Of a DNA stretch of 64,000 nucleotides, positions 3,938 to 63,125 are shown in pieces. Both the position numbers and the translations under genes were made by a program. The DNA is from Caerostris darwini (taxonomy: Eukaryota): NCBI GenBank assembly GCA_021605075.1, contig BPLQ01011166.1:407264-471263 (forward strand). The letters run 5' to 3'. The notes under the pieces were generated by a model, which saw nothing but the letters and a program-made list of their open reading frames with translations, did no database searches and was not told the DNA's origin. The number at the start of each line of letters is the position of its first letter. The first letter of the stretch is position 1.

Positions 3938-5435
3938 GAATGGACTTGAAAAATAGTCAATATTAAAGCTATAATGGACATTCTCGTTATCGCATCTTTT
4001 AATCCAGAAAGCATAGTTACAAGTTTCTTAGTCGAAAACCTCTCGCTTGATATAATACAAAAGGAATACAAATCTTTTTGATATCATAGTAGACTCTGAT
4101 CAGGTCGTCAATCGTCCATATGTTCATAAACTTACTTGATCCGGTTGGATTACTACCACATTGCTTTACTTAAAGTGGGATCTCCAATAATTTTACTATG
4201 GAACCTCGACCCGCCAAAATTTTGCAATGACACCAAGACCGTCTCTAGCCAAGTAGTGATTCAAGGCATTTACAGATATATGAACCCCCCTTTTATTTAA
4301 ATTATACACTAAGAGTACATAGAGATAATTTCGTTTTCCTCTATCCTAGGGAAATTTCGAAAAAAGTGCGTATCACATAATCAAATTGGTTCAATATTGT
4401 TATCGTGGAAGAAGGACAAACACACTTTCGGATTTTTATAAAAGGTGTTGATTGGAACTATGACTTCCATATTCCTTCACAGATGTGAATGCCATACTCA
4501 AAAAATGAAAAAAATTTTTTTTTTTTTTGCTTCTCCATAAGAAGCTTATCAGCTCCAAAAAGATTTCGTATGAAGAAGTCAAAATATTTTTTCACTTTCG
4601 ACATTTCAGAAGAAAGTTGCTTGATATAATGAGCAAATCACCCCCAGCCTTTCACGGTTCAAATCAACATCCTATATTCAGACACACACCTAGAGAGGGT
4701 GTTTAGGGGGCTTGAGCCCTCCAAATTTCCTAAATGAAAGGTGTGCATGTATTCAACTTTGATTTAAAAAAAGATTGAGTAAAAGAAATTATAAATACAT
4801 TACAAATGTTTTCGGCTACAATAAAGATTCCCAATATCCTTATAAACATCAGCATTTTTGCATAAATGACAAATTTCAATTGTAGTTCGCTTAACTGTAA
4901 TAATAAAAAAAAACATCTAGTTCTTGTAGTTGGTTAGTTGATTGACTTTTGATGGAACAAGGACCAGACTTGGTCAAGCTGTACAAAACAACTGGTAATA
5001 CTCATAAGAAAATTCTTGCATTGTTAAAACGTACAATGTACAGAAAGTGAAATAGTTTAAAGATTGTTAAGATACTATAGATATCTATATAAACTATACA
5101 ATTTATCAGTAAAACGTTTAATTTAAGCATATCCAAAATTGTAGGACTAAAACAATCTTCATCGTATTCCAGCAACAACAACAAAGAAAATATTAATAAT
5201 TGAAAAATAGTGTAAAAAACCGATATTTTTTAAAAAAGCATAGTAGGTTATAGCAAGGTTTGATCGCCCCTGGTACGGAGTTGAAACTTATTAACCCCGC
5301 ACAATTCCTTCCCCCCCCCCCTCCTACACCAAAATATAAAATCTTGTTCATTGAGAAATCAATTTTTTATTCAATTGGTTAAATAAAGAGAGTTTCATAT
5401 TAATTATTTTGTAACGTTTTTTTTTTAATAAATAA

Positions 5436-5839
5436 TTGTTGTTGTTTCTTATCCCACTTGGCTGGCCAAGCCCACGAGCCCATACGTACTCATGATTGAA
5501 GGGGAAGGAAGCAGCTTCTGTTGTGATGGAGCCCACGTAGGTAGAAGTCTGACTTTGGCTCCGTGACGCTCTTACAGTCATAGGAGACCGGGACCTACGG
5601 CTTAAAGTGGATTCCGAACCACTACAACCATCCATGGCTCCGCCGGGATTCGAACCCGAAACCTGTGGCACCGAGCGCCAGAGCGCTAGACACTCGACCA
5701 TTCAGGTCCCAAATTTGTGAATGCCAACGGCACGCGGTATTCCCAAGTGGTCACCCACCCAAGTACTGACCGCGCCCAATGATGCTTGACTTCGGTGATC
5801 TAACGAGAACCGGTATATTCAGCATGGTATGGCCGTTGG
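5436..5839 (-). mobile_element. Composite SINE: 5S-rRNA-like head + tRNA-like module + conserved core + (CAA)n-type tail, flanked by a 12-bp TSD TTTAATAAATAA (5424-5435 / 5840-5851)
   Basis: Near-identical to 10551-10937. Read on the minus strand it goes 5S-like (118 nt), then a tRNA-like segment with GGTTCGAATCC, then the core CCATGGATGTTTGTAGTGGTTCGGAATCCACTTTAAGCCGTAGGTCCCGGTCTCCTATGACTGTAAGAGCGTCACGGAGC. Direct repeats flank the unit. Confidence 0.8.
5722..5839 (-). other. 5S rRNA-like sequence forming the 5' head of the SINE (pol III promoter module; not an independent 5S gene)
   Basis: Reverse complement reads GCCAACGGCCATACCATGCTGAATATACCGGTTCTCGTTAGATCACCGAAGTCAAGCATCATTGGGCGCGGTCAGTACTTGGGTGGGTGACCACTTGGGAATACCGCGTGCCGTTGGC. 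This is collinear with animal 5S rRNA (GCCAACGACCATACCACGCTGAATACATCGG...GGTTAGTACTTAGATGGGAGACCGCCTGGGAATACC...). No T-run terminator lies between it and the tRNA-like part. Confidence 0.75.
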
Positions 5840-6413
5840 TTTAATAAATAAAAAAGGTAAAATGCCATTTTATTAATAAGCCAGTTTAATGTGTAATGCA
5901 ATAAATCTTTTTTCTGGCGTATATCTTCATTATTATTAGAATACAGTTTAATGAAAACTCATTTTTTTTTACTTTTCGTTCAAGCTCTAATCCATCCAAC
6001 AAACTGTACTCTATTACGTCAACAAAATCGATATTTTCAGCTAGACTATTTTCAATTGACAAAATGGCTAAGCTAGAGAGTCGTGCTTGGTTCACAGAGG
6101 ATTTCAGACAATTCTTAATTCGAAAAAAATATCTCTCATGATGCAACAGAAATGCTTAAAGTAAATAAAAAATCTTAAAATTTCTATACAACCTATATAA
6201 TTCCCACGCTCTTGATTACTCAGTATAAATATCCCAGCAGCGGGCAGAAAGTTTTCACATAATGAAAAGCACTAAATGATACTTATTAGCTTTCTTTCAT
6301 ATAAAATGCAATTTTTTTAGAGACATCATGTTTATTTGTGTTTATAATTAGAATTAATATCCATTTTATTTTATTTTTATCCATTTATTACTATCATTTA
6401 CTTATTTTTAATA

Positions 6414-8989: not shown

Positions 8990-9365
8990 CTTTATAGATT
9001 AAACCGCAGACTTATCTAAATTATCTATCTCTTCCTTAACTAGTGTTATTGAACAATTTGATATTTTTTCTGGAATAGTTACGTTTCTCCTTCAAGTGTG
9101 GCTTGAAACCAAAAGAAGTTTTTGGTGATGTATTTCCACCACAAATTTTCCGTTCAATCTTTTTGTCTCCATTGCTCGATTTTTAGTTTTTTGTATCCTC
9201 TTCGTCTTCATCGCTGCTATCCTCCAATGGCTTTGTTGTCAGTTCCTGTAGCATTTTTCCCACTCGAAGAGTTGTGGCATTTTTTACCCAGGAGAGGGGA
9301 ATGTATATATTCTTTGACAAATACATAATAACAACCTGTGAAATATATCACTCAAATTTGACAGC

Positions 9366-9650
9366 AAAGGCCTCGCGAGTGGCTAGCGCTCGGTACCACA
9401 GGTTTCGGATTCGAATCCCGGCTGTGCCATGGATATTTGTAATGGTTCGGAATCCACTTTAAATCGTAGGCCCCGGTCTAACATGATAGTAGTGCGTTGT
9501 GGGGGTATTGTTACTTCGCGTCCGTGGTTTATCTTCAAGCTACACGCATCTCCTTGGTTATGCTAAGTGAGTAACGTTGGTGCAGCGTTTGCCTTAAGGC
9601 ATCAAAGACAACTGTCTAAGTGTTTGCCAGCTGCATTAGAACAAAAAAAT
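9366..9650 (+). mobile_element. tRNA-derived SINE copy (tRNA-like head GGCCTCGCGAGTGGCTAGCGCTCGGTACCACAGGTTTCGGATTCGAATCCCGG + core), A-rich end
   Basis: Shares the core CCATGGATATTTGTAATGGTTCGGAATCCACTTTAAATCGTAGGCCCCGGTCTAACATGA. Imperfect flanking repeats are TTGACAGCAAAG and TTGATAGCAGATAAG. Confidence 0.55.
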
Positions 9651-10550
9651 TTTTGATAGCAGATAAGCAGTGTTGTGAGTAGTTATATTACATGCAATTG
9701 GTGTTTTGTACTAATGGGAACAACCTGTCACTCAAATCTGATAGCAGATAATCAGTATCATGGATAAGGATATCATGAAATTAGCGATTGTCTGTGCGAA
9801 CTTACAAAAAATGACCGAAACAATTACAGATGGAATATGGACTACACCATGAGCTGTCGCATCGTGATTGATGATAGACCAAGGACTAAGAAAATGCCTA
9901 CTCGAAGAAGAAGTGGGGAAAGCTGAACCCTCCCCCCTCTTAAAGGGAGGCTTTTGGAGAAGTAGAAGAGAGTTCTGCAACGAGTCGACAAACAGTGTTG
10001 TTTTTCTCTTTTACTGAAAGTGCAAGCCGGAGTTTCCTCCTGTTTTACAAAATGAGCCCCTTGTCATTTCGTGTATTACGCCGTGTGTTAATTGATGTCT
10101 GCCGCAGACCACGTGTTTTAAATTCATTGTAGACTCGAAAACTGTGAAAATCTCCGTCCTTGGAGAGAAATGCACTAGTGAAATTCAAATTTAGATATTC
10201 AATTTTCTTTTTTTGTAAATAATAAATTGTATTAACAAAGAGTTCAATATATATATATATAACGCTTGTAAATAAAAATTTGGTGTTCCTATGAACCTGA
10301 AGGTGTCGCTTTTTTGAAGCCGTTATAGGTCTAGTACAGGGGGAGAAGTTACAGTTCCATTTGACTTTCTGAATCAGCATTAACAAACCACTCTCTCTGA
10401 TTATATAGCTTTATATAAAGATTATAATTTAAGATTAATTTTACAATTTCTCTGAATTCTTCTTCAACATCATCAATAAGCGAATGAATGATTATAAGCG
10501 TCTTCATCTAATTGAAATTGTTTTCTTTCCTTTATGTGCTCTGTTGGTAT

Positions 10551-10937
10551 GTTGTTGTTGTTGTTTCTTATCCCACTTGGCTGGCCAAGCCCACATGGAC
10601 TCATGATTGAAGGGGAAGGAAGCAGCTTCTGTTGTGATGGAGCACCCGTAGGTAGAAGCCTGACTTTTGCTCCGTGACGCTCTTACAGTCATAGGAGACC
10701 GGGACCTACGGCTTAAAGTGGATTCCGAACCACTACAAACATCCATGGCACCGCCGGGATTCGAACCCGAAACCTGTGGCACCGAGCGCCAGACACTCGG
10801 CCATTCAGGTCCCAAATTAGCCAACGGCACGCAGTGTTCCCAGGTGGTCACCCACCCAAGTACTGACCGCGCCCAATGATGCTTAACTTCGGTGATCTAA
10901 CGAGAACCGGTATATTCAGCATGGTACGGCCGTTGGC
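10551..10937 (-). mobile_element. Composite 5S-headed SINE, second copy, flanked by a perfect 14-bp TSD TGCTCTGTTGGTAT (10537-10550 / 10938-10951)
   Basis: About 93% identical to 5436-5839 over 5S + tRNA-like + core + (CAA)n tail. The 5S-like part is 10820-10937. The TSD is read directly from the sequence. Confidence 0.85.
10820..10937 (-). other. 5S rRNA-like head of SINE copy 2
   Basis: Reverse complement reads CCAACGGCCGTACCATGCTGAATATACCGGTTCTCGTTAGATCACCGAAGTTAAGCATCATTGGGCGCGGTCAGTACTTGGGTGGGTGACCACCTGGGAACACTGCGTGCCGTTGGC. Confidence 0.75.
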
Positions 10938-10955
10938 TGCTCTGTTGGTATAGAA

Positions 10956-10995: not shown

Positions 10996-11026
<31 letters not shown>

Positions 11027-14910: not shown

Positions 14911-15140
14911 TACTACTACTACTACTACTACACTACACCGCCTAGAGCTGAGTTGCCAGTTTGGTAATAATGTGGGTGAGAAGTCTGACTGGGCTCCGTG
15001 GCGCTCTTACAGTCATATGAGACTGGGGCTTATGGCTTAAAGTGGATTCCGAACCACTACAAACATCCATGGCATTACAGGGACTCGAACCCGAAGCCTG
15101 TGGCACCGAGCGCTGAACACTCGGCAATTCAGGCTCCGAA
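14911..15140 (-). mobile_element. tRNA-headed SINE of the same subfamily as the 5S-headed copies but without the 5S module; (CTA)n tail
   Basis: Minus strand reads CGGAGCCTGAATTGCCGAGTGTTCAGCGCTCGGTGCCACAGGCTTCGGGTTCGAGTCCCTGTAATGCCATGGATGTTTGTAGTGGTTCGGAATCCACTTTAAGCCATAAGCCCCAGTCTCATATGACTGTAAGAGCGCCACGGAGCCCAGTCAGACTTCT… followed by a (TAG)n tail. Confidence 0.7.
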
Positions 15141-15491
15141 TTTTTATATAAGAATTATAATATTTAACTTTTCTTTAATACTTGAAATGTTTGTAAACAT
15201 TGTAAGGCCCGGGGACATGTGTTTGTGCAAGCAACGTCATCTGTAAAGCTCTACGGGGAACATTCGAGTTTAAGCAGAGTTGTATGTGTGTGTGAAAACA
15301 GATAGCGCGTGGCGAGACCCTCCTCGAGAGTGATTTCGGCCCAAATTAAAGCCCACTTTAATAAATAATAAAAGTTCAGCACAAATAAAAGTCCAAAAAA
15401 AAAATTTACAGTCCACATTGTTTTCATTTGTCTTAAATTCGAAGAAAAGAGCTGTCGAACAGCAGTCAAAAATGGGGTAAATTGTATTTCA

Positions 15492-16658
15492 CTATTCAAG
15501 GTGGGAAAATTTTTCTTCTTTTAGTTGGGGGCTTTCTAGATGTCGTTTTTCTTCTGGGCATCGTTCTCGATTCGGACCTTTTCCTTTTCTGCGCTGGCTT
15601 AACACAGGAATCTTGTGCCCGCTTTCTTCTCCGAACACTTGATTTTGGGTTCGCTTTGGACGCCTCACGTATCTCAAGTTTCCTTTGCGATATGCAGCGA
15701 CATCAGAAGTAGCCTTCATCAGAGCGTGCTCTTTGAGCAGATACGAAAATGCTCTTAAAACAGCCTGTGTCAGCTCTTCGTCACCCATGTCAGTTTTTTT
15801 TATCTGGCATATTTCTGCAGCAATCTCTGCCAGATGCTCAGCGATCTCGATTAAAAGGAGTCCCAGGTACTTTGGAGGCTTCGAGTCGATGTGGGACAAC
15901 GGATCCACTTCTGAAAAAAGCCTCTTGATGGAAGAGGTGAAACATTCCGCGAATTCCGGTTTAGAAAAACCATCACTCCACAAACTCCTTTTCTTCAGTT
16001 TTAAATCGAGTAAGCTGTTTTCGTATAAAGCTAAATACCTATTCGCTTCGTTGACAGCTGCATTGAAAACGTTCTTTTCAAAATATTGGGGTAAAATGTT
16101 TTTTAAATCCAGAGGTCGGAGCTCTTCGTTTTGACCATAAGTTCCAGCTGCTTTGGCGGTTATTGCCTTTCCGAATTGATATATATATAAAGCTAACGTA
16201 TCCCTGGCTTTTCTGTCAAATATTAAATTCTGTAGGCATTTGGAGCTCAGGTTTGCAACTCCGGATTTGAAAGGGTTAGTGTTTCTTCTAATATCAACAT
16301 CTTGGCGGATTTCTTTTTTCTTTGCTTTCACTTTTAATGCACCATTGCCGCCATACGTCATACAACCACTCTGTAATAAAGCTAATTGCTTAAAAGCTTC
16401 TGATAAAGCGTGCCTTTTCAAACCTCCTTCAAAATATGTGCCAATTACTTTATGAGCGATAAGTTGTATGGTGTGTCCATTCATTCTATTCACAGCATTA
16501 TATTCTTCTTCAATGCGAGTTATTATTGTTGAATTTACTTGGTTCAGCAACTTTGAAAGTAGTTCAAGGAAATTGTTTTCTACTTTTAAAGCCAAGGCCT
16601 GATCACTAATTAAATTCTCTAGGCCTGTTTTGTAACTAATATCTTTGGTGTAAACCAT
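15492..16658 (-). CDS. Intact intronless 388-aa ORF of unknown family, with a basic C-terminal tail (…YRKGNLRYVRRPKRTQNQVFGEESGHKIPVLSQRRKGKGPNRER…)
   Basis: The longest ORF in a 60-kb TE-rich interval. I recognise no DDE, RT, zinc-knuckle or YR motif and no splice signals inside. Codon usage is less AT-skewed than the neighbouring DNA. Confidence 0.5.
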   Translation of the reverse strand: MVYTKDISYKTGLENLISDQALALKVENNFLELLSKLLNQVNSTIITRIEEEYNAVNRMNGHTIQLIAHKVIGTYFEGGLKRHALSEAFKQLALLQSGCMTYGGNGALKVKAKKKEIRQDVDIRRNTNPFKSGVANLSSKCLQNLIFDRKARDTLALYIYQFGKAITAKAAGTYGQNEELRPLDLKNILPQYFEKNVFNAAVNEANRYLALYENSLLDLKLKKRSLWSDGFSKPEFAECFTSSIKRLFSEVDPLSHIDSKPPKYLGLLLIEIAEHLAEIAAEICQIKKTDMGDEELTQAVLRAFSYLLKEHALMKATSDVAAYRKGNLRYVRRPKRTQNQVFGEESGHKIPVLSQRRKGKGPNRERCPEEKRHLESPQLKEEKFSHLE

Positions 16659-17482: not shown

Positions 17483-17646
17483 GGTTTTGTTTGGTTTGTT
17501 GCTCTGCGGTCATTTTTTGCACACTCTGGACTAATTATTCCGGGACCTACAAGTTAACGTGGATTTCGAACCACCAACAAACATCCATACCACCGTCAGG
17601 ATTTGAATCTGAAGCCTGTGGCACCAATTGGCCATCAGGCAGCCAG
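17483..17646 (-). mobile_element. tRNA-derived SINE copy (core + tRNA-like head GCTGGCTGCCTGATGGCCAATTGGTGCCACAGGCTTCAGATTCAAATCC)
   Basis: Core and tail are shared with 19178-19345 and 62718-62900. Confidence 0.6.
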
Positions 17647-17884
17647 CTTACTGAAAGAACAAATCATGAAATTAAAATCTTGAACAAATTAGAAATAAAA
17701 TTATCTTCACTCCATAGCTTTGAGAAATATTGTTTGAAGGACACATTATGTCCTTTTCAGTGTTCCTCCAATTAAGGTATTGTTTTCAGTATGCATTAGA
17801 GTGGTTGTGCATGTATTAAAGGGTTTGGACAAGAATACGGCATTAGATCCATGAAGAGCAACTTCTTTGGTGAGAGAGCATTAT

Positions 17885-18530
17885 TATGTATAGTAGCCAA
17901 GCATACATTTTTCAACATCCGAGCAAGCATTACAGCATATGACCCAACTAAGTCCATTTTTACAAAAATAAACCTGAATAACATTAAATATATTATTTCA
18001 TGTGCATCTTTTAATGATAGGATAGCATGATATAATATTTTATCCAGCACATTTTTTTTTCTTCAATGGTGCAACAGCCTCATGGTAGATTAAGGCCATC
18101 TGCCTACTGGCAGATTTCGGGATAGGAGATGTCAGTACTTACGTATTAACGCCACCGCAGCTACAGATTTGGCGGTTTTTAAGTGGCGCCAATCTACACT
18201 TAAAAATTTTGTGACAAATCATAAAATATATAAAACACTTTATTTAAAAACAAAGTAGTCAATCGGATTTCGGTGGAAAATGTTCCGATATAGAGTTTAA
18301 AAATAGATTCAAAACAGTTTTTATTTTGGCGCATTGGTAGCTCTTTATTGGCGCATTAGCGCAACTTCTGCTGCGGTGGCGTTAATACGTAAGTACCGAG
18401 ATGTTTTTTTACGGATAAGGTTGTCAGCCCTACGTTCAACAGTCATATCAGACCGAGACCTACGGTTTAAAATAAATTCCGAACCACTACAAGCATCCAT
18501 GGCACCACTGGGACCCGAATCCGACACGTG
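17885..18530 (-). mobile_element. Long SINE copy (about 400-bp body) with a head truncation, interrupted by a nested MITE at 18133-18398
   Basis: Collinear with 18655-19044 (…catcttttaatgataggatagca…ggtgcaacagcctcatggt…gatttcgggata…) when the 266-bp insertion is removed. Confidence 0.6.
18133..18398. mobile_element. Nested 266-bp MITE with 27-bp TIRs (C)AGTACTTACGTATTAACGCCACCGCAGC, flanked by a (G)AGATGT duplication
   Basis: The left end reads cagtacttacgtattaacgccaccgcagc and the right end reads gctgcggtggcgttaatacgtaagtaccg. The flanking SINE sequence is continuous in the sister copy 18880-18920. Confidence 0.6.
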
Positions 18531-18654: not shown

Positions 18655-19044
18655 TAGATTTTTCAACATCCATGCAAGCTTTACAGCAAATAATCTAACT
18701 AACTCCTTTTTCACACAAATAAACCACAAAAAAGTATTAAATGTATTCTCTCATATGCATCTTTTAATGATAGGATAGCACAATATAATATTTCCATCTA
18801 GCAAATTTTTTTTCTTCTTCATTGGTGCAACAGCCTCATGGTGGACTAAAGCCATCCCGCCTACTGGTAGATTTCGGGATATGAGATGTTTCCTTTTTAT
18901 GGGTTGGATTGTGAGCCCTACATTCAACAGTCATATTAGATCGGAACCTACGGTTTAAAGAGGATTCCGAACCACTAGAAGCATCCATGGACTCGAATCC
19001 GAAAAATATGGCACCAAGTGCTAGTCGCTCGGCCATCAGGCCCC
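18655..19044 (-). mobile_element. Long SINE copy with tRNA-like head GGGGCCTGATGGCCGAGCGACTAGCACTTGGTGCC…GGATTCGAGTCC
   Basis: Core GGATTCCGAACCACTAGAAGCATCCATGG is on the plus strand; the body matches 17885-18530. Confidence 0.65.
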
Positions 19045-19177
19045 ATTTAACACATTGTCATAGAAATATTTTGCAATAATAAGAAAAATTGCGAAATTGG
19101 AAGCATTCTTGTTTTCATCCATCTCTATCGAAAAGAAAGAATTGTTTTTGTTTTTTTTAAAGTCTTTTAATTACTGT

Positions 19178-19345
19178 TTTGGTTTGTCTCTCCACGGTCA
19201 TTTTGTGCACACTTTAGGTCAATTAGACAGGGTCCTACAGTTAAATGTGGATTCCAAACCACTAACAAACATACATGCCACTGCCAGGACTCGAACCTGA
19301 AACCTGTAGTACCAAAGGCCAGAGCGCAGCCAATTGGCCATCAGG
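19178..19345 (-). mobile_element. tRNA-derived SINE copy
   Basis: Minus strand reads GCCTGATGGCCAATTGGCTGCGCTCTGGCCTTTGGTACTACAGGTTTCAGGTTCGAGTCCTGGCAGTGGCATGTATGTTTGTTAGTGGTTTGGAATCCACATTTAACTGTAGGACCCTGTCTAATTGACC. Confidence 0.7.
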
Positions 19346-19753
19346 CAATTTAAATTACTGTAGATTCAATGTCGTAGATATGTTCTCCGAGAAATTATAT
19401 TTTATTTAAATTAGAATACTGTACATTTTTCTGGCATGGTCTTACTGAACAGCTGGTCATGACAGTACAGCTTCTTCAATATAAGATCTCAAATGTTAAG
19501 CTATTGTGGGATTTTTACCGCTTTTAGCAATACGATAATTTTTTCTGTACAATGCTTCAACGCCCATTGTGTGCAGATATTACAAAATAATATAAGATTT
19601 GGGCACTTTGATAATCACTAAAAAAACTAGCGTTTTATGTTTATAAATTTTAATCTTTAAATGGCCTATTAATAGAGATGTTTCTTGGAACCTTTGGACA
19701 AAATTTCCACACAAACAACTGACAACGTTTTCATCTCGTGTTATTGAAAATCC

Positions 19754-19915
19754 GGGCCTGATGGCTAAGTGGCTAGCGCTCTGCTCTAGCGCACAGGTTT
19801 TGAGTTCAAGTCCCGGCAGTGCTATGGGTGTTTGTTGTGGCTCGGAATCTACTTTAAATCGTAGGTCCCGGTCTAATATGACTGTAGAGCGTTGGGTGAC
19901 CAACCTTAAACAGTA
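19754..19915 (+). mobile_element. tRNA-derived SINE copy (plus orientation); forms an inverted pair with 19178-19345
   Basis: GGGCCTGATGGCTAAGTGGCTAGCGCTCTG…GTTTTGAGTTCAAGTCCCGGCAGTGCTATGGGTGTTTGTTGTGGCTCGGAATCTACTTTAAATCGTAGGTCCCGGTCTAATATGACTG. Confidence 0.7.
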
Positions 19916-48350: not shown

Positions 48351-49571
48351 TTGTGGGACATTATAAGTGATGATAATAGAACAAAATATACCGCTGCTAA
48401 AACACGATTGCTGAATACTTTTAAAGAAAGCGAAAATAAGCGTCTTCAGAGACTGCTGACAGGACTTGACTTGGGAGATCTTAAACCTAGTCAACTTTTA
48501 CAAAAAATGAGAAATCTGGCTACTGATGGAATTACTGACAAGATACTAACAACATTATTTCTACAAAAAATGCCTGATTCTGTAAGGAATATTTTACTAG
48601 TCAGTGATGAAAAAATTGAAAAACTGGCATTAATGGCGGATCGTATTCTTGAAATGCAACCAAAACAAGAACTTTACCGCGTAAGCAATGTTTCATCAGG
48701 ATCAGATGCCATGACTGAGTTACAACAACAAATTACATCTTTGGAAAATAAACTTGAAAAACTGAGTGTCACAAGGAACTCTCGTTCCCAAACAACAAAT
48801 AGAGGTCGATACTCTTCTTCTCATCGAAGTCAGTCTCGCAATCACTCTTATAATCCTTCAGGCAAATACTGTTATTACCATTTCCGTTTTCGAGAAAAAT
48901 GTTTTCCTGATAAATGCAAAGCTCCATGTGCATGGCAAAAACAATCCTTCGGAAAATCAGAATCAGCAACAGAATTAACGGCAGACTCTGCTGCTGAAAA
49001 TACAAAACATTGCCGTCAATACCGTCTATTTGTCAACGACAAAAAAACGGGTTTACGCTTTTTGGTTGATAGTGGAGCGGACGTAAGTCTTATTCCTTAT
49101 ACTTCTAAACACAAATTTATTAGTGACTATAAATTATATGCTGCAAATAATACTGCAATCGATACTTTTGGTACAGAAATTTTAAATCTTGATCTAGGTT
49201 TACGCCGAGAATTTCAATTCCCATTTATTGTGGCCAAAATTAGTAAACCTATACTAGGTGCAGATTTTTTAAATAAGTTCAATTTATTAATTGATATAAA
49301 GCATAAAAGATTAATTGATGGTGTAACTAACCTTGCAGTTTATGGTAACATTGCACCCATCTCTATTAATGAAAGTGTAAATACAACGAGCAGCTTATGT
49401 AAATATTCTGATTTATTTTCTATGTATCCCAATATAACAAAACCAAATTTTCTTGTTTCAAATGTTAAACATAATGTAAAACATCATATTATAACTAAAG
49501 GACAACCTATAAATTGTAAAGCAAGACAATTAGATCCAAAACGGTTGGAAATAGCTAAAAAGAGAATTTAA
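48351..49571 (+). CDS. gag-protease polyprotein (406 aa): Cys/His knuckle CYYHFRFREKCFPDKCKAPC, aspartic protease LVDSGADVS
   Basis: Intact ORF. The D-S-G-A protease motif is read directly. The C-terminus …HHIITKGQPINCKARQLDPKRLEIAKK runs on, after a +1 shift, into RT (EFKYMLDNNIISPSSSEWASP…). Confidence 0.85.
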   Translation: MWDIISDDNRTKYTAAKTRLLNTFKESENKRLQRLLTGLDLGDLKPSQLLQKMRNLATDGITDKILTTLFLQKMPDSVRNILLVSDEKIEKLALMADRILEMQPKQELYRVSNVSSGSDAMTELQQQITSLENKLEKLSVTRNSRSQTTNRGRYSSSHRSQSRNHSYNPSGKYCYYHFRFREKCFPDKCKAPCAWQKQSFGKSESATELTADSAAENTKHCRQYRLFVNDKKTGLRFLVDSGADVSLIPYTSKHKFISDYKLYAANNTAIDTFGTEILNLDLGLRREFQFPFIVAKISKPILGADFLNKFNLLIDIKHKRLIDGVTNLAVYGNIAPISINESVNTTSSLCKYSDLFSMYPNITKPNFLVSNVKHNVKHHIITKGQPINCKARQLDPKRLEIAKKRI

Positions 49572-49575
49572 ATAT

Positions 49576-50973
49576 ATGCTAGACAATAACATTATTAGTC
49601 CATCTAGCTCAGAATGGGCAAGTCCATTACATATAGTAACAAAGAAAGATGGTTCTTTTCGTCCATGTGGTGATTATAGAAGATTGAATGATTTAACTAT
49701 ACCTGATAGATATAACATACCTCGAATCCAGGATTTTCAACATATTTTAACTAATAAAACTATATTTTCTAAAATTGACATTACTAAAGCATATTATCAC
49801 ATTCCTGTAGCAGATGAAGATAAGGCAAAAACTGCCATCATCACACCTTTTGGACTTTATCAATTCAATGTGATGAGTTTTGGTCTCAAAAATGCCCCTG
49901 CAACATTTCAAAGGTTTATAAATGAAGTTCTTTATGGTCTAGACTTTGTGTTTCCATACTTAGATGATGTGTTGATCGCCTCTTCTTGCGAGGAAGAACA
50001 TCGTTCACATCTTAAAATAGTTTTCCAGCGTTTAGATAAATATGGTCTACGGATTAATATTAGCAAATCAGTTTTGGGAGTACCTGTAATAGATTTTTAG
50101 GCTATCAAATATCTGCGGAAGGTTCACTACCTCAACCTCAAAAGATCAAAGCTATCATAGAATATCCATTGCCAGAAACTATGCACGAATTACGTTCCTT
50201 CTTAGGAATGATCAATTTTTATCGTAATTATATAAATAATGCCGCAAAAACTCAAGCCCCTCTACATGAACTTTTGAAAGGATCTACAAAAAAAAGATCG
50301 ACGCAAAATACCATGGACCGATGAAACTAGACAAAGTTTTGAAAAATGCAAACAAGATGTTGCTCAAATAGCGTTAATGGCATATCCCAACTCGGATTAC
50401 CCTCTGGCACTTCTCACAGATGCATCTGATTGGGCTATTGGATCAGTTATTCAACAAAAAGAACCAAATGGATGGAAGCCAATTGCATTTTTCTAAAAAA
50501 CTTAATGATGCTCAGAAAAATTACAGCGTTTATGACCGTGAACTTTTGGGTATATATTTATCCATTAAACATTTTAAGCATTTACTTGAAGGTCGAGATT
50601 TTGATATTTATACTGATCATAAACCGTTAATATTTGCTTTTAAGCAAAACAATGATAAAGCCTCCCCAGACAACTCAGACATCTACAATATATCTCACAA
50701 TTCTCTACTAACCTATACCATATCAGTGGTCGAAACAATGTGGTAGCAGACAGACTGTCTAGAATTGAGGACATCGATTCACCTATTGTCGATTATGACT
50801 TGATAGCTGATGCACAAATTAATGATGATGAACTGCAACAATTGAAATTACATTCCAAATCATTACATTTTAAAGAACACCAATTGCCATCAGGAAAGCT
50901 CTTGTATTGTGATACCTCTACTTCCAGTATCAGACCATTCATACCAAAAAAATTTTCGAATGACAATATTTAA
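49576..50973 (+). pseudogene. pol RT-RNaseH region, recognisable but split over 5 frames by frameshifts located in homopolymer runs
   Basis: RT reads …FSKIDITKAYYHIPV…TPFGLYQFNVMSFGLKNAPATFQRF…YLDDVLIAS…GVPVIDF|LGYQISAEG…RSFLGMINFYRNYI… and RH reads …LTDASDWAIGSVIQQ…PIAFF|SKKLNDAQKNYSVYDRELLGIYLSIKHFKHLLEGRDFDIYTDHKPL…DKAS|PRQLRHLQYISQFSTNLYHISGRNNVVADRLSRIE…. Shifts fall at T5 (about 50095), A8 (about 50285), T5/A6 (about 50485), C5 (about 50660) and A7T4 (about 50945). Confidence 0.8.
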
Positions 50974-52111
50974 TACAATTCACAGTTTATCTCATTCTGG
51001 AATTCGAACTACTGTAAAAGAAATAACTAAAAGATTCATTTGGCCAAATATGAAAAAAGATGTTAAACAGTGGACTCAAACTTGCATCAACTGTCAGAAA
51101 AATAAAATAACTAAACATACAAAATCAGAATATTCACAATTTCAAGCACCAGATGAGAGATTTAGTGTCGTTCATATAGATTTAATTGGACCTTATTCAC
51201 CTTCTAATGGATACACATACTGCTTGACGTGTATTGATCGGTTTACCTCTTGGATGGAAGTGGTACCGTTATCAAATATCACTGCAGAAAGTATAGCAAA
51301 AGCTTTTTATGAGCATTGGATTACCCGATTTGGTGTACCTACTTGTGTTATTACTGACAAAGGCACTCAATTTATTTCAGAACTATTTCGAAGTTTAGCT
51401 GCGCTATGTGGTGTTAAAGTAAACCATACGTGTTCTTACCATCCTCAGAGTAATGGAAAAGTTGAACGTCTTCACCGTACCTTGAAAACAGCTATTAGAT
51501 GTCATAACAACGTTCGTTGGACGGACACATTACCAACGGTTCTTATGGGTTTGCGAGCTGCTCTACATGAGGACTCTAAGTATACAATAGCTGAAATGGT
51601 TTATGGCAAAACTATTAAACTACCAGGCGAATTCTTTGAAGAATCCAGATTGCCAATATCTGATGATAATTTCGTAAGTAATCTCAGAAAACAGATGGCT
51701 GACTTAAAACCATACCAATCCAAAAACAAATGTAAACAAAAGATCTTCATTCCAAAAGATTTGTACACATGCTCACATGTGTTTCTGCGAATTGACAGAG
51801 TCAAAAAACCATTAGAACCCCCATATGAAGGACCCTATTTGGTATTGCAAAGATCCCCGAAAAACTTTCTTCTATCAATTAAAAATAAACAAGTTAATAT
51901 TTCAGTGGATAGATTAAAACCGGCATATGTGTTACAACCTAATGAACTTCTGAATCCAACATTATCAAATGATCATACATCTCTGCCGAGTGAACAAACA
52001 TTTATACCAAGTCAGCAAGTTGCACAACCAAATACAACAACACGTTGTGGAAGACAAGTAAAACTTCCTGTTCGTTTCAATGACATTATTGACTTTTCTT
52101 CAAATTTATAA
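50909..52111 (+). CDS. Integrase (HHCC zinc finger + DDE core), intact from the shift point
   Basis: HSLSHSGIRTT…CINCQKNK; D in HIDLIGP, D in CVITDKGTQF, E in SNGKVERLHRTLK; GPYSPSNGYTYCLTCIDRFTSWMEVVPL and SYHPQSNGKVER are typical gypsy integrase strings. Confidence 0.85.
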   Translation: MIPLLPVSDHSYQKNFRMTIFNTIHSLSHSGIRTTVKEITKRFIWPNMKKDVKQWTQTCINCQKNKITKHTKSEYSQFQAPDERFSVVHIDLIGPYSPSNGYTYCLTCIDRFTSWMEVVPLSNITAESIAKAFYEHWITRFGVPTCVITDKGTQFISELFRSLAALCGVKVNHTCSYHPQSNGKVERLHRTLKTAIRCHNNVRWTDTLPTVLMGLRAALHEDSKYTIAEMVYGKTIKLPGEFFEESRLPISDDNFVSNLRKQMADLKPYQSKNKCKQKIFIPKDLYTCSHVFLRIDRVKKPLEPPYEGPYLVLQRSPKNFLLSIKNKQVNISVDRLKPAYVLQPNELLNPTLSNDHTSLPSEQTFIPSQQVAQPNTTTRCGRQVKLPVRFNDIIDFSSNL

Positions 52112-53123: not shown

Positions 53124-55503
53124 TTATCCTGGGTCGAAGTTAATTCTTTTCGCTGTTGGAAAAGAGATGAACATAGCGTTATTAATGGCACGGGGCCTTT
53201 TCTTTGCTTTCGGGTGTTTGTAATCGTAGATGGGTAAATTATTGATGAGCGGATTGTTAGATCTATTGGTGTTGTTAATGAAATCGGTTGCGATTCGCTT
53301 AGAGTAGTCCAGGATAGATTCTAGGTTGAGATTTTTGTGGAGAAATTCTCTGCTGAGGTGAAAAGGAGCGTTTGTAATTTTGAGCAATTGTTGATTTTGG
53401 AAAACCTGCAATTTCCGTAAAGTGGAGATGGGTGAGGAGATCCAAACAGGAGCCGCATAGGTGATAATGGGTCTGATGATGGAAGTATATAGAGTGAGTT
53501 TACTTCTGATAGATAATTTACTAGTGAAGTTGATCAGTGGGTTGATTTGGTGGCTGGCAATATTTGCCTTTCTGATAGTATCCTTTAGGTGAGGATTAAA
53601 ATTTAGTTTCGATTCTAGAATGACCCCAAGGTACTTGTATTCATTTACAAACGGTACTGGTTCGTTGAAGATCTTGAGCTGTGGTGGGTTTGATCGTCGT
53701 TTTTGACGAGAGAAAATTAGGCAGGCACACTTTGAGGCATTGACCTTCACTTTCCATCGTGAGAGCCATGTCTCCAGGTGTCCTATGTAATTTTGCAGAT
53801 TAGTAATGATCTCAATGTTATCCTTGCTTCGAGTAATAATGGCGGTATCATCCGCGTACATGGCCATCTGAGTATTGGTCGTGCGTGGGAAATCGTTGAC
53901 ATAAAGGTTGAAGAGTAATGGTGATAGAAGTGAACCCTGCGGGAGGCCGCTGGCGATTGCTCGTGGTGTTGATGTTTGGTTGTTTACCTTCACTTTGAAG
54001 TTCCGGTGTGAGAGAAAAGAGTTAATTAAGAGTGCAATAGGTGCTGGAAAGTCGAGTTGCATGAGTTTGAAAATTAGACCGGTATGCCAAATCTTATCGA
54101 ACGCTTTCGCGATGTCTAAGAAGAGTATACCAGTATTAATTTTCTTGGAAAAACCGTCGTGTATAAGTTCAGAAACTCTGAAAAGTTGGTGTGTAGTGCT
54201 GAGTGATTTCCTGAAGCCAAATTGCTCAGGAATTATGATGTTGTTTTGGGTGCAGAAATTATTAATACGTAATAAAATGGCGTGTTCATAGATTTTACTG
54301 ATGCTGCTAAGTAATGAAATAGGTCTATAGTTTTGTGGCCGATTTATATCTGTACCACATTTGTGTATGGGTGTTATTGTGGCTGTCTTCCAGCAGCTAG
54401 GAAAATGGTAGAAGCTAAGAAAGTGATTTAAAATGATGTTTAGCCATATGATGTATTTAAATGGAAGATGCATGATCATGGCTTTGTTTATGTTGTCTTC
54501 ACCCGGAGCTTTTTTAATTTTTAGTGAGTGTATAAATTCGAATGTCTCCGAGGCGGTGATAGCATTAATGTAATTTACATGAGGTTCGTGTAGATAATGA
54601 TGAGCAGCAGAAATGATTAACGAGTTGGTGGAGACGTGGTTGTCTGTTAAGTTGGGAGAAAATTGAGCTTGCCAGCAGTCTGCAATTAATTCGGCTTTTT
54701 CTTCTGGAGAGATTACCGTTGATCCATTATCAGATATTAGTGGGGGAATCTGAGTGTTGTTTTTACGGAGTGCTGAAACTTTCCTCCAGAGTGAGGTGCT
54801 ATTACTAGAGAAATCATTGGTGATGTTGGCCCAGCTATTGCTTTTGGGCAGATTTATTTTCTTCTTGATGATGTTGTTTAATTTATTGATGCAATTTTTG
54901 AGAGCCGGATCTTTAGATCTTTGCCAGGCTTTCCTGATCTTATTTCTGTTTTTGATGATCGTTTTGATTTCCTTTGGAATCTTTTTCCCCGGATGGTCAA
55001 AGTTTCTTTTGGAGCTTTTGTCTAGAGCTTCTAGCATAGTGTTTGTGAGGTTATTTAGTGCGTGTTCCGCATCGTGGGCTGAGTTTATTTTGCTGATAGG
55101 AGGCATGGAGTGTTGAAGTGTGTAACTGTAGTTGTGCCAGTTTGTGGTTTTACGTTGGGTGGAAGTAGCAAGATTACTATTGAGATTTAAGGTAATAATG
55201 ACTGGCATGTGGTCAGAGTTTAACTCGTGTATCACTTCCATGGAGCTGCTATATGGGATGTTTCTAAGAAGTGCGAAGTCTATGGTGGTGTTCCCATACC
55301 GGGCCTGAGGGCTGAAATGGGTGGGGGTGTGTGGTGCAATTATTTTTATATCATTCCTGGAGTTAAAGAATTTATTGAATTTAATTCCACGTAGGGTGTG
55401 TTTTGTATTGTTCCAGGATGTGTGTGAGGCGTTAAAATCTCCTGCGAGAATGGTGTTTTTATTTGCCTCAATTAATTTCTTTAGACAGGAGTATGAAAAT
55501 ATT
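53124..55503 (-). mobile_element. Non-LTR retrotransposon (APE-endonuclease LINE) ORF2, 793 codons open, 5'-truncated inside the endonuclease domain; the 3' UTR probably continues toward about 52517, where the LTR element is inserted
   Basis: EN C-terminal half reads …ILAGDFNASHTSWN…SDHMPVII. RT reads …PGEDNI…FDKIWHTGLIFKL…LPQGSLLSPLLFNLYVND…MYADDTAII…YLGVILESKL…. The frame is open from 55503 (preceded by TGA) to the stop at 53124. No RNase H or CCHC motif was seen. Confidence 0.8.
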
Positions 55504-56284: not shown

Positions 56285-58150
56285 TCTGTTTTTTCTTCCT
56301 TATATTAAAACTTTAATTTCTGATCGCAATCGTGCTCATAAATTACAGCAGTTTCTTCAAGATTCTCCCTGAAAAATATAATTACAAAGAGCTCAAGCGA
56401 TACTTAAGCTCGGCATCCGAAAAAGACTTCTGGACTGAATTGCAAAATCTCGATTCGGAGGATAGCTCTCTTTGGAAAGAGATTAATAGATTCAAACGCA
56501 AAGCTACTAAAGTTCATATTCGGAAAGATCCAAATACTATTCCTCTAATTCTGCCATCACTGGCACTCAAAACGCTACGCCTAGCCTACCACCACCTGCC
56601 TTCGGGACCTGCTTCAACTTTCTAATCTTCATATTGACGGGTCAGCTCAGTCCTCCATCACTAACCTGGCCTTTGGTACCACAGGCTTCAGGTTCGAATC
56701 TTGCCGTTGACATGGATGTTTGTAAGTGGTACGGAATTGACGTTAAACTGTAGGTCCTGGTCTAATTAGCCTAAAGTGAGCAAAAAAGGACAGTAGAACG
56801 ACAAACCAAGCCTCCATTACTAAATTATTTGAAACGTCTCATAAACAATAAACATTAGCTCCTCTTTAATTCATGAATACATTCGAAAAAGTTCAAATTA
56901 AACTAGCTGCAGTCATTGACTGCATCACTAATAAAATGTTTAATAATTTAACTTTCAAAATAATTGTTCGTATTTCTCTTTTTATTATCAATTCCAATAT
57001 CACCCTTTCATATTTTATTTAAACATGAAAAACAGCAATTATTCTTTCCATTATGAAGACAAAAAAAAATCCTTCTAACGCCAATAACTACTGGTCTATC
57101 CACTCACACCAAAATTGCTGAATTGTCAACAAAATTAACTCATATCATTACTTCTAACTTTATAATCCCTTAATAATGTAGATTCATTACTAATCTCTTT
57201 GACAAAAACCACTAACTCTCTCTAATCACCAACTTCTTAATCACTTGAACTAATCTCTGAAGGACTCGGGAATAAATCTATCATGATAAATGTATCTTTT
57301 CTTCGCGTGTGGATCGAATGGCTCATCTTTAGATTAATCTACTTTAAATTTCACATCCGTCTTCTTCGGTTAATTTTTTCCTATATTTCCAATATATAAC
57401 ATTAACAAAATCCGTAACTCTTTCTTTCTTTTTAAAGTCAATATTCCACAAAGCTCAACTATTGAACCCATTTTCTTCAAATTTCAAATCAATAAGGTAC
57501 ATTTATGTTCTATGCTGATGATCTTTCTATTGCTGTCCAGTCCAATAGTATTCGTCTCTTACTAATTAACCTTGAAACTTGGTTTGTCAGGTGGAAATTC
57601 CTTCTTAATGCTGATAAAACTGAAGATGCTCTTTTTACTTAAAAAGTCATTCTTCTGTTACGTTATTTACGATTATTTGATCAAACGAGGTCAAATGCCT
57701 GGGTGTAATTCTTGATAAAAGACTAACTTTATATTATGTTAACTATAGGAAGAAAAAAAATTGATTTTTATGTTTGCACCTAATATGCACCATTAATTGA
57801 GATTTCTTCTTCTCTGTTGAAAATGAACTACTAATCTATATGTACTATAGACGTCGCATTATCACATATGCTTCCAGGTTTGGAGTCCAGCTGCAAAAAT
57901 TAGAATTAATTGTATTCAAATGTTAAAAATAAAATTCTTCATATGATCACTAACGCACCAGGGTTCTTTAGAAATGATGACAACCGTAATTCTCTAAATC
58001 TTCCCAGTATCAAAATGTTTATTTTTAAATTTTCCACCAATTTGCTTATAAAACTTGACTTTTCTAATTTAGTAAAATCCTCCACAACTGCGATCACACC
58101 CTGACCTCCAACTCCAAAAGCTCAAAATATTTTATCCCAGATTTCTTGTC
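56285..58150 (+). pseudogene. Second, degenerate copy of the same LINE family (plus orientation), with a SINE fragment inserted at 56665-56785
   Basis: 56332-56625 reads …DFWTELQNLDSEDSSLWKEINRFK… (compare LINE A …DFSSNSTSLWRKVSALRKNN…). 57500-58110 reads …FYADDLSIAV…LETWFVRWKFLLNADKTE…, with frameshifts and stops. Confidence 0.6.
56665..56785 (+). mobile_element. Partial tRNA-derived SINE (5'-truncated head) inside LINE copy B
   Basis: ACCACAGGCTTCAGGTTCGAATCTTGCCGTTGACATGGATGTTTGTAAGTGGTACGGAATTGACGTTAAACTGTAGGTCCTGGTCTAATTAGCC. Confidence 0.6.
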
Positions 58151-59390: not shown

Positions 59391-59759
59391 ATGCCTGCTA
59401 TACCGAGCGGTAAAGCTATGAAAAAAGTCGATAAGGCACCTCGACCTGGGGACAAAAAGCTTAAAAGGAAAAAGAAGAGGAAGGAAAGTTTCAGTATTTA
59501 CATCTACAAGGTTCTGAAGCAAGTTCATCCCGATACCGGTGTTTCTAGTAAAGCTATGTCTATTATGAACAGCTTTGTGAACGATATTTTCGAACGTCTT
59601 GCTGCCGAATCCTCTCGTCTTGCTCATTACAACAAGCGTTCCACTATTACAAGCCGAGAAATACAAACAGCCGTTCGTTTGCTGTTGCCCGGAGAACTTG
59701 CGAAACATGCCGTTTCAGAAGGAACCAAAGCCGTGACCAAATACACCAGCTCCAAGTAA
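59391..59759 (+). CDS. H2B: Histone H2B (122 aa), canonical
   Basis: [122 protein letters not shown] is essentially the invariant H2B histone-fold and C-terminus. Confidence 0.95.
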
Positions 59760-61457: not shown

Positions 61458-62675
61458 CACTGAAGTGACAAAAGTCATGGGATAGCAATATGCAAATTTT
61501 CAGATGGCAGTAGCATCGCGTAGAACGGGTATAAATGCGCAGTGCTTTCGCAGAGCTTTCATTTCTGTTCAAGTTATTCATGTGAAGAGGTTTTGACGTG
61601 ATCATGACCGCACGACGGGAATTAACAGACTTGGAACGCGGAATGTTAGTTGGAGCTAGACGCGTGGGTCATGCCATTTCGGAAATCGTTAGGGAATTCA
61701 ACATTCCCAGATCCACTGTGTCAAGAGTGTGCCGAGGGTATGAAATTTCAGGCATAACATCCCACCATGGACAGCGCAGGGGTCGACCGCCTGCACTTAA
61801 CGACCGAGACCGGCGACGTCTGCAAAGAGTCGTAAATTCTAACAGACAAGCAACACTGCGTCAAATAACCGCAGAAATCAATGTGGGACGTACAAGGGAC
61901 TTGTCTGTTAGAACTGTGCGGAGAAATTTGGCTTTCTTGGGCTATTCCAGCAGAAGACTGACTCGAGTGCCTTTACTGACAGAACGACATCGCTTGCAGC
62001 GACTCTCGTGGGCACGTGAGCATATCGGTTGGTCCCTAGATGAATGGAAAACCGTGGCCTGGTCCGATGAGTCACGATTTCAGTTGGTAAGAGCTGATGG
62101 TAGGGTTCGAGTGTGGCGCAGACCCCACGAAGCCATGGACCCAAACTGTCAGCAAGGCACTGTTCAAGCTGGTGGTGGCTCCGTAATGGTGTGGGCTGTT
62201 TTTTCAGGGCATGGACTTGGTCCTCTGGTGCGACTGGACCGAACATTGACTGGAAATGCTTATGTTCAGCTACTTGGAGATCACTTGCAGCCATTCATGG
62301 ACTTCATGTACCCAAACAACGATGGGATTTTTATGGATGACAATGCGCCATGTCACCGGGCCACAACTGTTCGCGATTGGTTTGAAGAACATTCTGGACA
62401 ATTCCAACGAATGATCTGGCCACCTAGATCGCCCGACATGAATCCCATCGAGCATTTATGGGACATCATCGAGAGGTCTGTTCGTGCCCAAAATCCTGCA
62501 CCATCAACGCTTTCACAATTATGGACGTCTATCGAGACAGCATGGCTCAATATTCCTGCAGAAGACTTCCAACGACTTGTTGAGGCCTTGCCACTTCGAG
62601 TTGCTGCACTTCGCCGGGCGAAAGGAGGGCCGACACGATATTAAGAGGTATCCCATGACTTTTGTCACTTCAGTG
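61458..62675 (+). mobile_element. Complete Tc1-like DNA transposon (1218 bp): perfect 27-bp TIRs CACTGAAGTGACAAAAGTCATGGGATA, TA TSD inside a (TA)n microsatellite, TATAAAT box at 61530-36
   Basis: 5' TIR 61458-61484 and 3' TIR 62649-62675 are exact reverse complements. TA flanks both ends. Confidence 0.9.
61598..62644 (+). CDS. Tc1-family DDE transposase, 348 aa, uninterrupted
   Basis: HTH reads …LTDLERGMLVGARRVGHAISEIVREFNIPRSTVSRV…. Catalytic residues: D in WSDESRF, D in FMDDNAPCH, E in SPDMNPIEHLWD (36 residues between the second D and E by my count, against 34 in the pseudogene at 12054). GGGSVMVWA and …LPLRVAALRRAKGGPTRY* are also present. Confidence 0.9.
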   Translation: MIMTARRELTDLERGMLVGARRVGHAISEIVREFNIPRSTVSRVCRGYEISGITSHHGQRRGRPPALNDRDRRRLQRVVNSNRQATLRQITAEINVGRTRDLSVRTVRRNLAFLGYSSRRLTRVPLLTERHRLQRLSWAREHIGWSLDEWKTVAWSDESRFQLVRADGRVRVWRRPHEAMDPNCQQGTVQAGGGSVMVWAVFSGHGLGPLVRLDRTLTGNAYVQLLGDHLQPFMDFMYPNNDGIFMDDNAPCHRATTVRDWFEEHSGQFQRMIWPPRSPDMNPIEHLWDIIERSVRAQNPAPSTLSQLWTSIETAWLNIPAEDFQRLVEALPLRVAALRRAKGGPTRY

Positions 62676-62717: not shown

Positions 62718-62900
62718 TTTCTGTGGGCTTGATTTGTAGCTCTACGGCCATTTCGCACACACGTTAGGCTAATTAGACTGGGACCTGTAGTTTAACGTGG
62801 ATTCCAAACCACTCACAAACATGCATGCCATTGACAGGATTCGAACCTGAAGTCTGTGGTACCAAAGACCGGAGAGCTAGCAAATTGGCCATCAGGCCCC
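62718..62900 (-). mobile_element. tRNA-derived SINE copy (minus), left member of a head-to-head inverted SINE pair
   Basis: Minus strand reads GGGGCCTGATGGCCAATTTGCTAGCTCTCCGGTCTTTGGTACCACAGACTTCAGGTTCGAATCCTGTCAATGGCATGCATGTTTGTGAGTGGTTTGGAATCCACGTTAAACTACAGGTCCCAGTCTAATTAGCC. Confidence 0.7.
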
Positions 62901-62979
62901 TGTCTGTTTGGAGAAGATTGATATGATGGAATTACAAGGAATAGTAAAATCAAAGTTATTAAAAATCCCCCTCGTTGTG

Positions 62980-63125
62980 GACTTGAATGGCCAATTGGCT
63001 AGCGCTCTGACGCTCGGTACCACAGATTTCAGGTTCGAGTCCCGACGGTGCCATTGATGTTTGTAATGGTTCGGAATCCACTTTAAACCATAGGTCCCGG
63101 TCTAACATGATCGTGGTGAGTGACG
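62980..63125 (+). mobile_element. tRNA-derived SINE copy (plus), right member of the inverted pair
   Basis: GGACTTGAATGGCCAATTGGCTAGCGCTCTGACGCTCGGTACCACAGATTTCAGGTTCGAGTCCCGACGGTGCCATTGATGTTTGTAATGGTTCGGAATCCACTTTAAACCATAGGTCCCGGTCTAACATGA. Confidence 0.7.

Follow-up and report, generated by a model that had tools for sequence, protein, structure and literature searches.

Two copies of a composite SINE with a 5S rRNA head and a tRNA-like module in the spider Caerostris darwini

SINEs that carry 5S rRNA sequence at the 5' end and tRNA-related sequence further downstream are known from vertebrates and insects. AmnSINE1 consists of a 5S rRNA-derived promoter, a tRNA-derived region, a Deu domain, and a 3' tail (PMC3234267), and a few vertebrate SINE families have composite promoters of 5S and partial-tRNA sequence that probably arose via a template switch (PMC4824008). 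In moths, HaSE3 of Helicoverpa is a chimera of 5S rRNA and a tRNA-SINE (PMC3272025), and PxSE4 and PxSE5 of Plutella are present in thousands of copies (PMC8010984); a template-switch origin has been proposed for both AmnSINE1 and HaSE3 (PMC3234267; PMC4824008; PMC3272025).

The element considered here is a spider example of this design, which is already known from vertebrate and insect SINEs. A 64-kb stretch of DNA from C. darwini (the window) contains two composite copies in which a 5S rRNA head is fused to a tRNA-type SINE, at 5436-5839 and 10551-10937 (404 and 387 bp), both on the minus strand; with a probability of about 0.8, they are separate and fairly recent insertions of one SINE family. 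The original prediction called a tRNA head retained downstream of 5S unusual, a view that gives way to the precedents of AmnSINE1, which has the same design (PMC3234267), and HaSE3, a moth chimera (PMC3272025). In the literature searched, no spider SINE of this kind is described.

AmnSINE1 and related vertebrate DeuSINEs with composite 5S and tRNA heads share with the C. darwini composite the proposed origin and, if its tRNA-like module is indeed tRNA-derived, the module order, as far as the work of Nishihara et al. (2006) is relayed in later papers (PMC3234267; PMC4824008). The likeness to AmnSINE1 is one of module order, and the composite is not filed as a DeuSINE; its host is a spider and not a vertebrate, its 5S head is far less decayed (102 bits), and its tail is (CAA)n. 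The vertebrate composites are described as containing a partial tRNA, whereas the C. darwini composite contains a whole SINE head with leader. HaSE3, PxSE4, and PxSE5 resemble it as arthropod 5S-headed elements with trinucleotide-repeat tails and flanking direct repeats (TSDs) that are read as chimeras of 5S and a tRNA-SINE, and their body and tail are common to a co-resident tRNA-SINE (PMC3272025; PMC8010984). However, HaSE3 as described has the body and 3' tail of HaSE1 with 5S in place of the tRNA head, whereas the C. darwini composite keeps a tRNA-like head downstream; and the lepidopteran heads are ~63% identical to 5S rRNA (PMC8010984), compared with ~90-93% identity of the C. darwini heads to spider 5S genes. 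Zebrafish SINE3 (Kapitonov and Jurka, 2003) is similar in its 5' 5S head, internal type-1 promoter, and dependence on a LINE, as far as the descriptions available to us go, but belongs to another lineage, and its body and tail seem unrelated as judged from the literature and not from an alignment. Chimeric retrocopies of small RNAs and LINEs (Buzdin et al., 2003, as cited in PMC4824008) likewise have a small pol III RNA 5' of a retroelement and TSDs around the whole; in the citing account they are one-off products carrying a functional RNA, whereas the C. darwini copies share derived 5S substitutions, a fusion point, and a private 3' body. What makes the spider element of interest is its chelicerate host, a 5S head that is still very fresh, and a tRNA-SINE kept complete with its leader. 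With head, junction, and leader still legible, it gives a cleaner snapshot of how a fusion forms than the ancient vertebrate examples do, and the family is a possible clade marker within Caerostris; the general view of how SINEs work is unchanged by it.

Both copies have the module order 5S rRNA, short linker, tRNA-like module, conserved core, 3' body of ~100 nt, and (CAA)3-4 tail, read 5' to 3'; the element sequences first reported are reverse complements of the window, since the elements lie on the minus strand. In copy 1, the 5S head, which lacks its first G, occupies 5722-5839(-); the linker ATTCACA, which joins the 5S 3' end to the tRNA-like module and has no T-run, 5715-5721(-); the tRNA-like module 5636-5714(-); the conserved core, common to 10 other window loci, 5551-5635(-); and the family-specific 3' body with its (CAA)n tail 5436-5550(-), the tail itself at ~5436-5448. 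The full-length 5S head of copy 2 lies at 10819-10937(-) and is followed by the tRNA-like module, with the leader reduced to T+AATTTGGG, at 10747-10818(-); sequence comparison places the conserved core at 10662-10746(-) and the 3' body and (CAA)n tail at 10551-10661(-). The 3' end of the element reads ...GGCCAGCCAAGTGGGATAAGAAA(CAA)n, and the non-5S body measures 270-285 nt. Substitutions between the copies amount to 2.4-5.1% per module (5S, 5.1%; remaining element, 2.4-3.7%), plus three short indels.

As predicted, each unit is bracketed by its own direct repeat. Direct reading gives for copy 1 the TSD TTTAATAAATAA (on the plus strand) at 5424-5435 on the 3' side and 5840-5851 on the 5' side, identical at 12/12 positions, and for copy 2 the TSD TGCTCTGTTGGTAT at 10537-10550 on the 3' side and 10938-10951 on the 5' side, identical at 14/14; given the base composition of the window, repeats like these would match by chance at fixed positions with probabilities of ~3e-6 and ~2e-9, respectively. 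The copies are 5.1 kb apart, interspersed, and non-tandem; in BLAST comparison the similarity between the loci ends at the element borders, beyond which the flanks are unrelated, so that the copies are two separate insertions as opposed to a segmental duplication. Because the TSDs enclose the 5S in both copies, the 5S belongs to the transposed unit, as the original prediction had it. The predicted lack of a T-run terminator between the 5S and the tRNA-like module is also borne out; neither copy contains a sense-strand run of at least 4 T, and the 5S/tRNA junction has TTT at most.

In terms of the SINEBase definition (PMC3531059), both copies are short (<1 kb), interspersed, non-tandem repeats, and through the 5S they have at least 60% identity over at least 60 nt to one of the tRNA, 5S rRNA, or 7SL RNA references; the extra body and the five 5S substitutions shared by the copies (relative to the 5S genes of other spiders) set them apart from retropseudogenes as distinguished there (PMC3531059). 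The (CAA)3-4 tail and the 12/12 and 14/14 TSDs are general SINE marks. Mechanical ORFs of 117 and 115 aa, at window 5348-5701(-) and 10504-10851(-), traverse the SINE, and one of them crosses the 5S/tRNA junction; the protein collection contains no homologue of either, and they almost certainly do not represent genes. Two homopolymer runs lie nearby and have no evident connection with the copies: a stretch of at least 25 A at window 10996-11022, 45 bp beyond the 5' TSD of copy 2, and a run of ~12 C at window 5311-5322, ~110 bp downstream of the 3' end of copy 1.

A scan of the 64 kb at Rfam gathering thresholds gave exactly two matches, both to 5S_rRNA (RF00001) over model positions 1-120: 5722-5840(-) with 102.1 bits and 10819-10937(-) with 102.2 bits. 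The expectation of a complete or near-full-length 5S head is thus upheld by the alignment to the RF00001 model, with the qualification that copy 1 starts CCAACGG right after its TSD, the first G of 5S being absent.

Genuine spider 5S genes for comparison were reached through a search of 5.8 billion proteins with a SINE-traversing ORF, which returned only a translated genuine 5S gene (P0001). Its contig, L001, contains H4, H2B, 5S, and H2A genes; its H2B and H2A match proteins of Argiope bruennichi, Araneus ventricosus, and Parasteatoda exactly. Histone look-ups yielded twenty more loci in six spider assemblies, with 5S genes in four of the six. The resulting reference set consists of five intact bona fide 5S sequences of spiders other than C. 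darwini, from four assemblies plus one Logan contig. The genes recovered (L001:1464-1582 and others in L126-L136, for example L126:5537-5655(-), L135:4967-5085(-), L134:4994-5112(-), and L136:6493-6609(-)) belong to histone repeats; a T-run follows their terminal GGCAT(A/T)C, and the Rfam scores of the four complete genes that were scanned are 108-110.6 bits. In several spider assemblies, including that of Araneus ventricosus (GCA_013235015.1), the 5S gene lies between H2B and H2A within the histone repeat and is repeated along with it. One histone-linked 5S gene, L133:3440-3576(-) in GCA_010614865.2, is internally duplicated over 18 nt in tandem (GAAAGTACCGGTTCTCGT x2), with a score of 96 bits; an intact neighboring copy is found in L136. 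The window itself has a solitary H2B at 59391-59759 (exact match to GIY56199.1), with no 5S gene nearby, and a 388-aa ORF at 15492-16658 that matches GIY56193.1 exactly; both accessions are proteins of C. darwini, an araneid spider, encoded on a 535-kb contig.

Both SINE heads carry T24, T39, A40, T63, and T84, where the five bona fide spider sequences have A24, C39, C/T40, C63, and A84 (5/5); the remaining seven differences between the two heads are private to one copy. Identity of the heads to the bona fide genes is 89.7-93.2% over 116-118 nt, with copy 1 differing at 10-15 of 119 positions and copy 2 reaching 93.2% with the 5S gene of GCA_019973975.1; genuine spider 5S genes differ pairwise at 1-11 positions. 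The region of boxes A, IE, and C, which we take to span positions ~50-97 on the assumption that the limits of the Xenopus gene apply to the spider heads, departs from the genuine spider genes at no more than three positions per head, the shared 63 and 84 and one that is private. The heads begin at the TSD boundary and so have the place that defines the SINE3 class, a 5S head at the extreme 5' end with boxes A, IE, and C, given these assumed box limits. A C.U mismatch in helix II was considered as a pseudogene mark and rejected, as it also occurs in the bona fide 5S genes of GCA_019973975.1.

The tRNA-like module contains a perfect B box, GGTTCGAATCC, at 5646-5656(-) and 10757-10767(-), and in both copies an A-box-like motif, TGGYCGAGTGT, that matches the A box at 9-10 of 11 positions (TGGTCGAGTGT at 5690-5700 in copy 1). 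ARAGORN finds no tRNA anywhere in the window, and the module scores 14.8 bits (E 3.9) with the Rfam tRNA model, below the gathering score of 29, and 27.7 bits (E 0.0015) with mascRNA, also below gathering; the head of a relative in another spider reaches 23.4 bits with the tRNA model against the gathering score of 29, and ARAGORN detects none there either. The claim of a tRNA-like module downstream of the 5S therefore stands for the A and B box motifs but falls below the thresholds for a tRNA, and the label tRNA-derived would rest on these motifs and a T-arm-like hairpin. Relative to copy 1, the module of copy 2 has an 8-nt deletion, a state also seen in a 5S-less sister copy. The core holds a second B-box-like motif, GGTTCGGAATCC, at window 5609-5620(-) and 10720-10731(-), ~40 nt downstream of the true B box and within a GTGG/CCAC hairpin; over the ~74 nt surrounding it, C. 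darwini and a distantly related spider have ~85-88% identity. The conserved core may, to judge from these features, be a decayed second tRNA-like unit. It has no exact match in viral contigs, and a full-text literature search with the core sequence returned no relevant paper.

The 3' body is private to the composite. That of copy 1 matches only copy 2 within the window, at 89% including an 8-nt indel (substitution divergence, 3.7%), and searches of the prokaryote-genome and viral collections gave no exact match to the composite 3' body. Two candidates for its role in retrotransposition were discarded: a 3' stem-loop as a reverse transcriptase recognition signal, the 3' region of copy 2 folding no better than shuffled sequences (z = +0.8), and the non-LTR element at 53124-55241 in the window as partner LINE, which has no similarity to the SINE 3' end.

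Without 5S, the tRNA/core SINE is abundant in C. darwini, C. extrusa, and at least one further spider species. By self-BLAST, nhmmer, and alignment, 10-12 further window loci have the same head and core, and all are without the 5S and without the composite 3' body. They include a copy at 9352-9511(+) that keeps the ..TCACTCAAATTTG.. leader, a cluster of five between 17536 and 19908 (17536-17631(-), 18345-18530(-), 18926-19047(-), 19211-19342(-), and 19747-19908(+)), one at 56665-56772(+) found by BLAST and nhmmer, and an inverted pair within 62766-63124 (62766-62901(-) and 62975-63124(+)). The cluster packs its five copies, in both orientations, into 2.4 kb. On average, the window has a superfamily copy every ~5 kb; a 22-kb C. 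extrusa sample has one every ~2 kb, with ~12 superfamily copies in total and no 5S or composite copy. The third species was met in JGI metagenome contigs scanned with a core 20-mer (at least 120 contigs, 875 kb, 34% GC); their host is another spider, whose SRP72 has 80% identity to the Stegodyphus dumicola protein and 76% to the C. extrusa one. BLAST with the core gives 134 hits on these contigs, to a ~180-bp SINE in which the same B box and core are followed by a CAAACCAAA-type tail; the ~875 kb contain no 5S head directly upstream of the core SINE and no composite copy. Loci sampled through mariner hits, in the L002/L003 assembly and in 21 kb of Araneus ventricosus, contain no SINE.

The copy at 14911-15149(-), put forward as a sibling lacking the 5S, does have the same head and core and no 5S, but shares only these ~165 nt with the composite, at 82-86%; its 3' region is different, it has a (GTA)n tail and no clear TSD, and its family also occurs in C. 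extrusa (L125:2706-2862 and 17524-17713). It belongs to a sister family and is not the direct progenitor. The proposal that a pre-existing tRNA-SINE acquired the 5S is consequently well served by the wide occurrence of the tRNA/core SINE without 5S, and not by the sibling cited for it.

The junction reads GGC-ATTCACA-AATTTGGG in copy 1 and GGC-T-AATTTGGG in copy 2. 5S-less relatives, too, have ATTCACA..AATTTG or a close variant just ahead of the tRNA-like head, at window 9350-9362 and at ~17532 in C. extrusa L125. The sequence that meets the 3' terminus of the 5S (...GTTGGC) in the fusion is therefore the extreme 5' terminus of a full-length tRNA-SINE, as would be expected if the template switch took place where the SINE RNA ends. 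In the scheme that we propose, a complete tRNA-type SINE with leader, A and B boxes, core, LINE-type 3' body, and (CAA)n tail would have gained a full-length 5S at its extreme 5' end, most likely when reverse transcriptase, on reaching the 5' end of a full-length tRNA-SINE RNA, switched to a 5S transcript as template, and the whole unit of ~390-400 nt would have been retrotransposed after the fusion.

A rather unlikely origin at the DNA level would have a tRNA-SINE insert in or next to the T-run terminator of one 5S gene, with read-through transcripts then serving as master. Such an event would fit the way in which genuine 5S genes pass from GGCAT(A/T)C into a T-run, as in the L001 gene with its trailer GGCATTC+TTTTT, and the way in which GGCATTC of copy 1 runs straight into the SINE, as though the terminator had been replaced; yet ATTCACA precedes 5S-less relatives too, so the ATTC need not stem from a 5S trailer, and neither a T-run remnant nor an internal TSD is visible at the junction.

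Whichever way the fusion arose, both copies probably descend from one composite master and not from two accidental 5S/SINE chimeras. The sharing of T24, T39, A40, T63, and T84, absent from all five bona fide spider 5S sequences, argues for a common master, and together with the private 3' body common to both copies it makes one composite master the most likely source. These states could in principle be specific to the functional 5S of C. darwini, because genuine spider genes differ from one another at up to 11 positions. It is quite unlikely that the two copies are independent chimeric retrocopies, formed by reverse transcriptase jumping each time from SINE RNA to cellular 5S with no 5S-headed master. 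Template switching, the probable origin of such fusions (PMC4824008), yields just this architecture, in which a small RNA precedes a complete SINE and the TSDs enclose the two, and the heads are full length and 90-93% identical to real spider 5S genes; the unlike junctions and the 8-nt indel between the tRNA heads would also fit two separate fusion events. On the other hand, apart from the shared substitutions, the 5S is found on both of the two window copies with this 3' body, an outcome that a rare side-reaction would hardly give; the fusion position is the same in both, at the extreme 5' leader of the SINE; and the 5S divergence of 5.1% is not below that of the SINE part (2.4-3.7%), although a lower value would be expected of heads fresh from a conserved gene. 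That ordinary 5S genes or pseudogenes, or a 5S rDNA array, merely adjoin SINE insertions is very improbable in spite of the ~102 bits over the full length, given only two matches in 64 kb, 5.1 kb apart with unrelated spacers and no terminator (no run of at least 4 T after the heads), TSDs that each enclose 5S plus SINE, and the location of genuine spider 5S genes in histone repeats with T-runs at their ends, and here the original prediction, which had set aside a neighboring gene or tandem 5S array, was right.

For a composite master, pol III would initiate at +1 of the 5S head by way of the internal type-1 control region (boxes A, IE, and C), and transcription would run on through the tRNA-like part, core, and tail into the flank, because no run of at least 4 T lies inside the element. 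The 3' body and (CAA)n tail would be recognized by the reverse transcriptase of a partner LINE, and target-primed reverse transcription would then create the 12-14-bp TSDs. The motifs present point to a putative dual pol III promoter. An extension of this, which we consider unlikely, is that both promoters are active, the 5S type-1 promoter and the A/B-box type-2 promoter 130 nt downstream, so that nested transcripts with and without 5S would be made, one locus would yield both types of progeny, and the 5S would be an exchangeable 5' module gained repeatedly by spider SINE lineages.

5S-headed SINEs are not rare in spiders, and the rarity that the original prediction ascribed to 5S-derived SINEs was overstated, since a separate one is common in another spider. 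In the JGI-contig spider, an old and abundant SINE of this kind (L087:11297-11520, continued by L016:1-270; relatives in L069, L039, L105, L006, L046, and others) is present in at least 17 distinct copies. Its 5S-like head scores 61.5 bits, and its tails are (GAA)n or (CAAA)n. A head of full length that runs on without a terminator and a tail of simple repeats link it to the C. darwini composite, but it differs in having an unrelated body without the tRNA/core module, in being much older and more diverged, and in sharing no diagnostic states with the C. darwini head family-wide. Descent of the C. darwini head from this SINE, considered on account of A40 and T84 in common with L087, was rejected, as most members have A84 and a different loop C. 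In many copies of the L087/L016 family, helix I is kept by a compensatory change (CCCGACGTG...CACGCGGG instead of GCCAACGGC...GCCGTTGGC), which suggests selection on a folded 5S domain of the SINE RNA; that two spider lineages have 5S-headed SINEs, with helix I preserved in this way in one of the two, is a hint that the folded 5S is selected in SINE RNA.

Other mobile elements occur in the window besides these SINEs. An LTR-retrotransposon pol region (RVT_1; Integrase_H2C2, rve) lies at 48351-52111(+), and its 3' end is not in common with the SINE; beside it is the non-LTR element at 53124-55241(-), with an RT ORF of 705 aa. An intact Tc1/mariner transposase ORF (Pfam DDE_3, HTH_Tnp_Tc3_2) at 61598-62644(+), directly upstream of the two inverted SINE copies, has 95% identity with a protein in ENA assemblies and 82-87% with fragments from Stegodyphus mimosarum.
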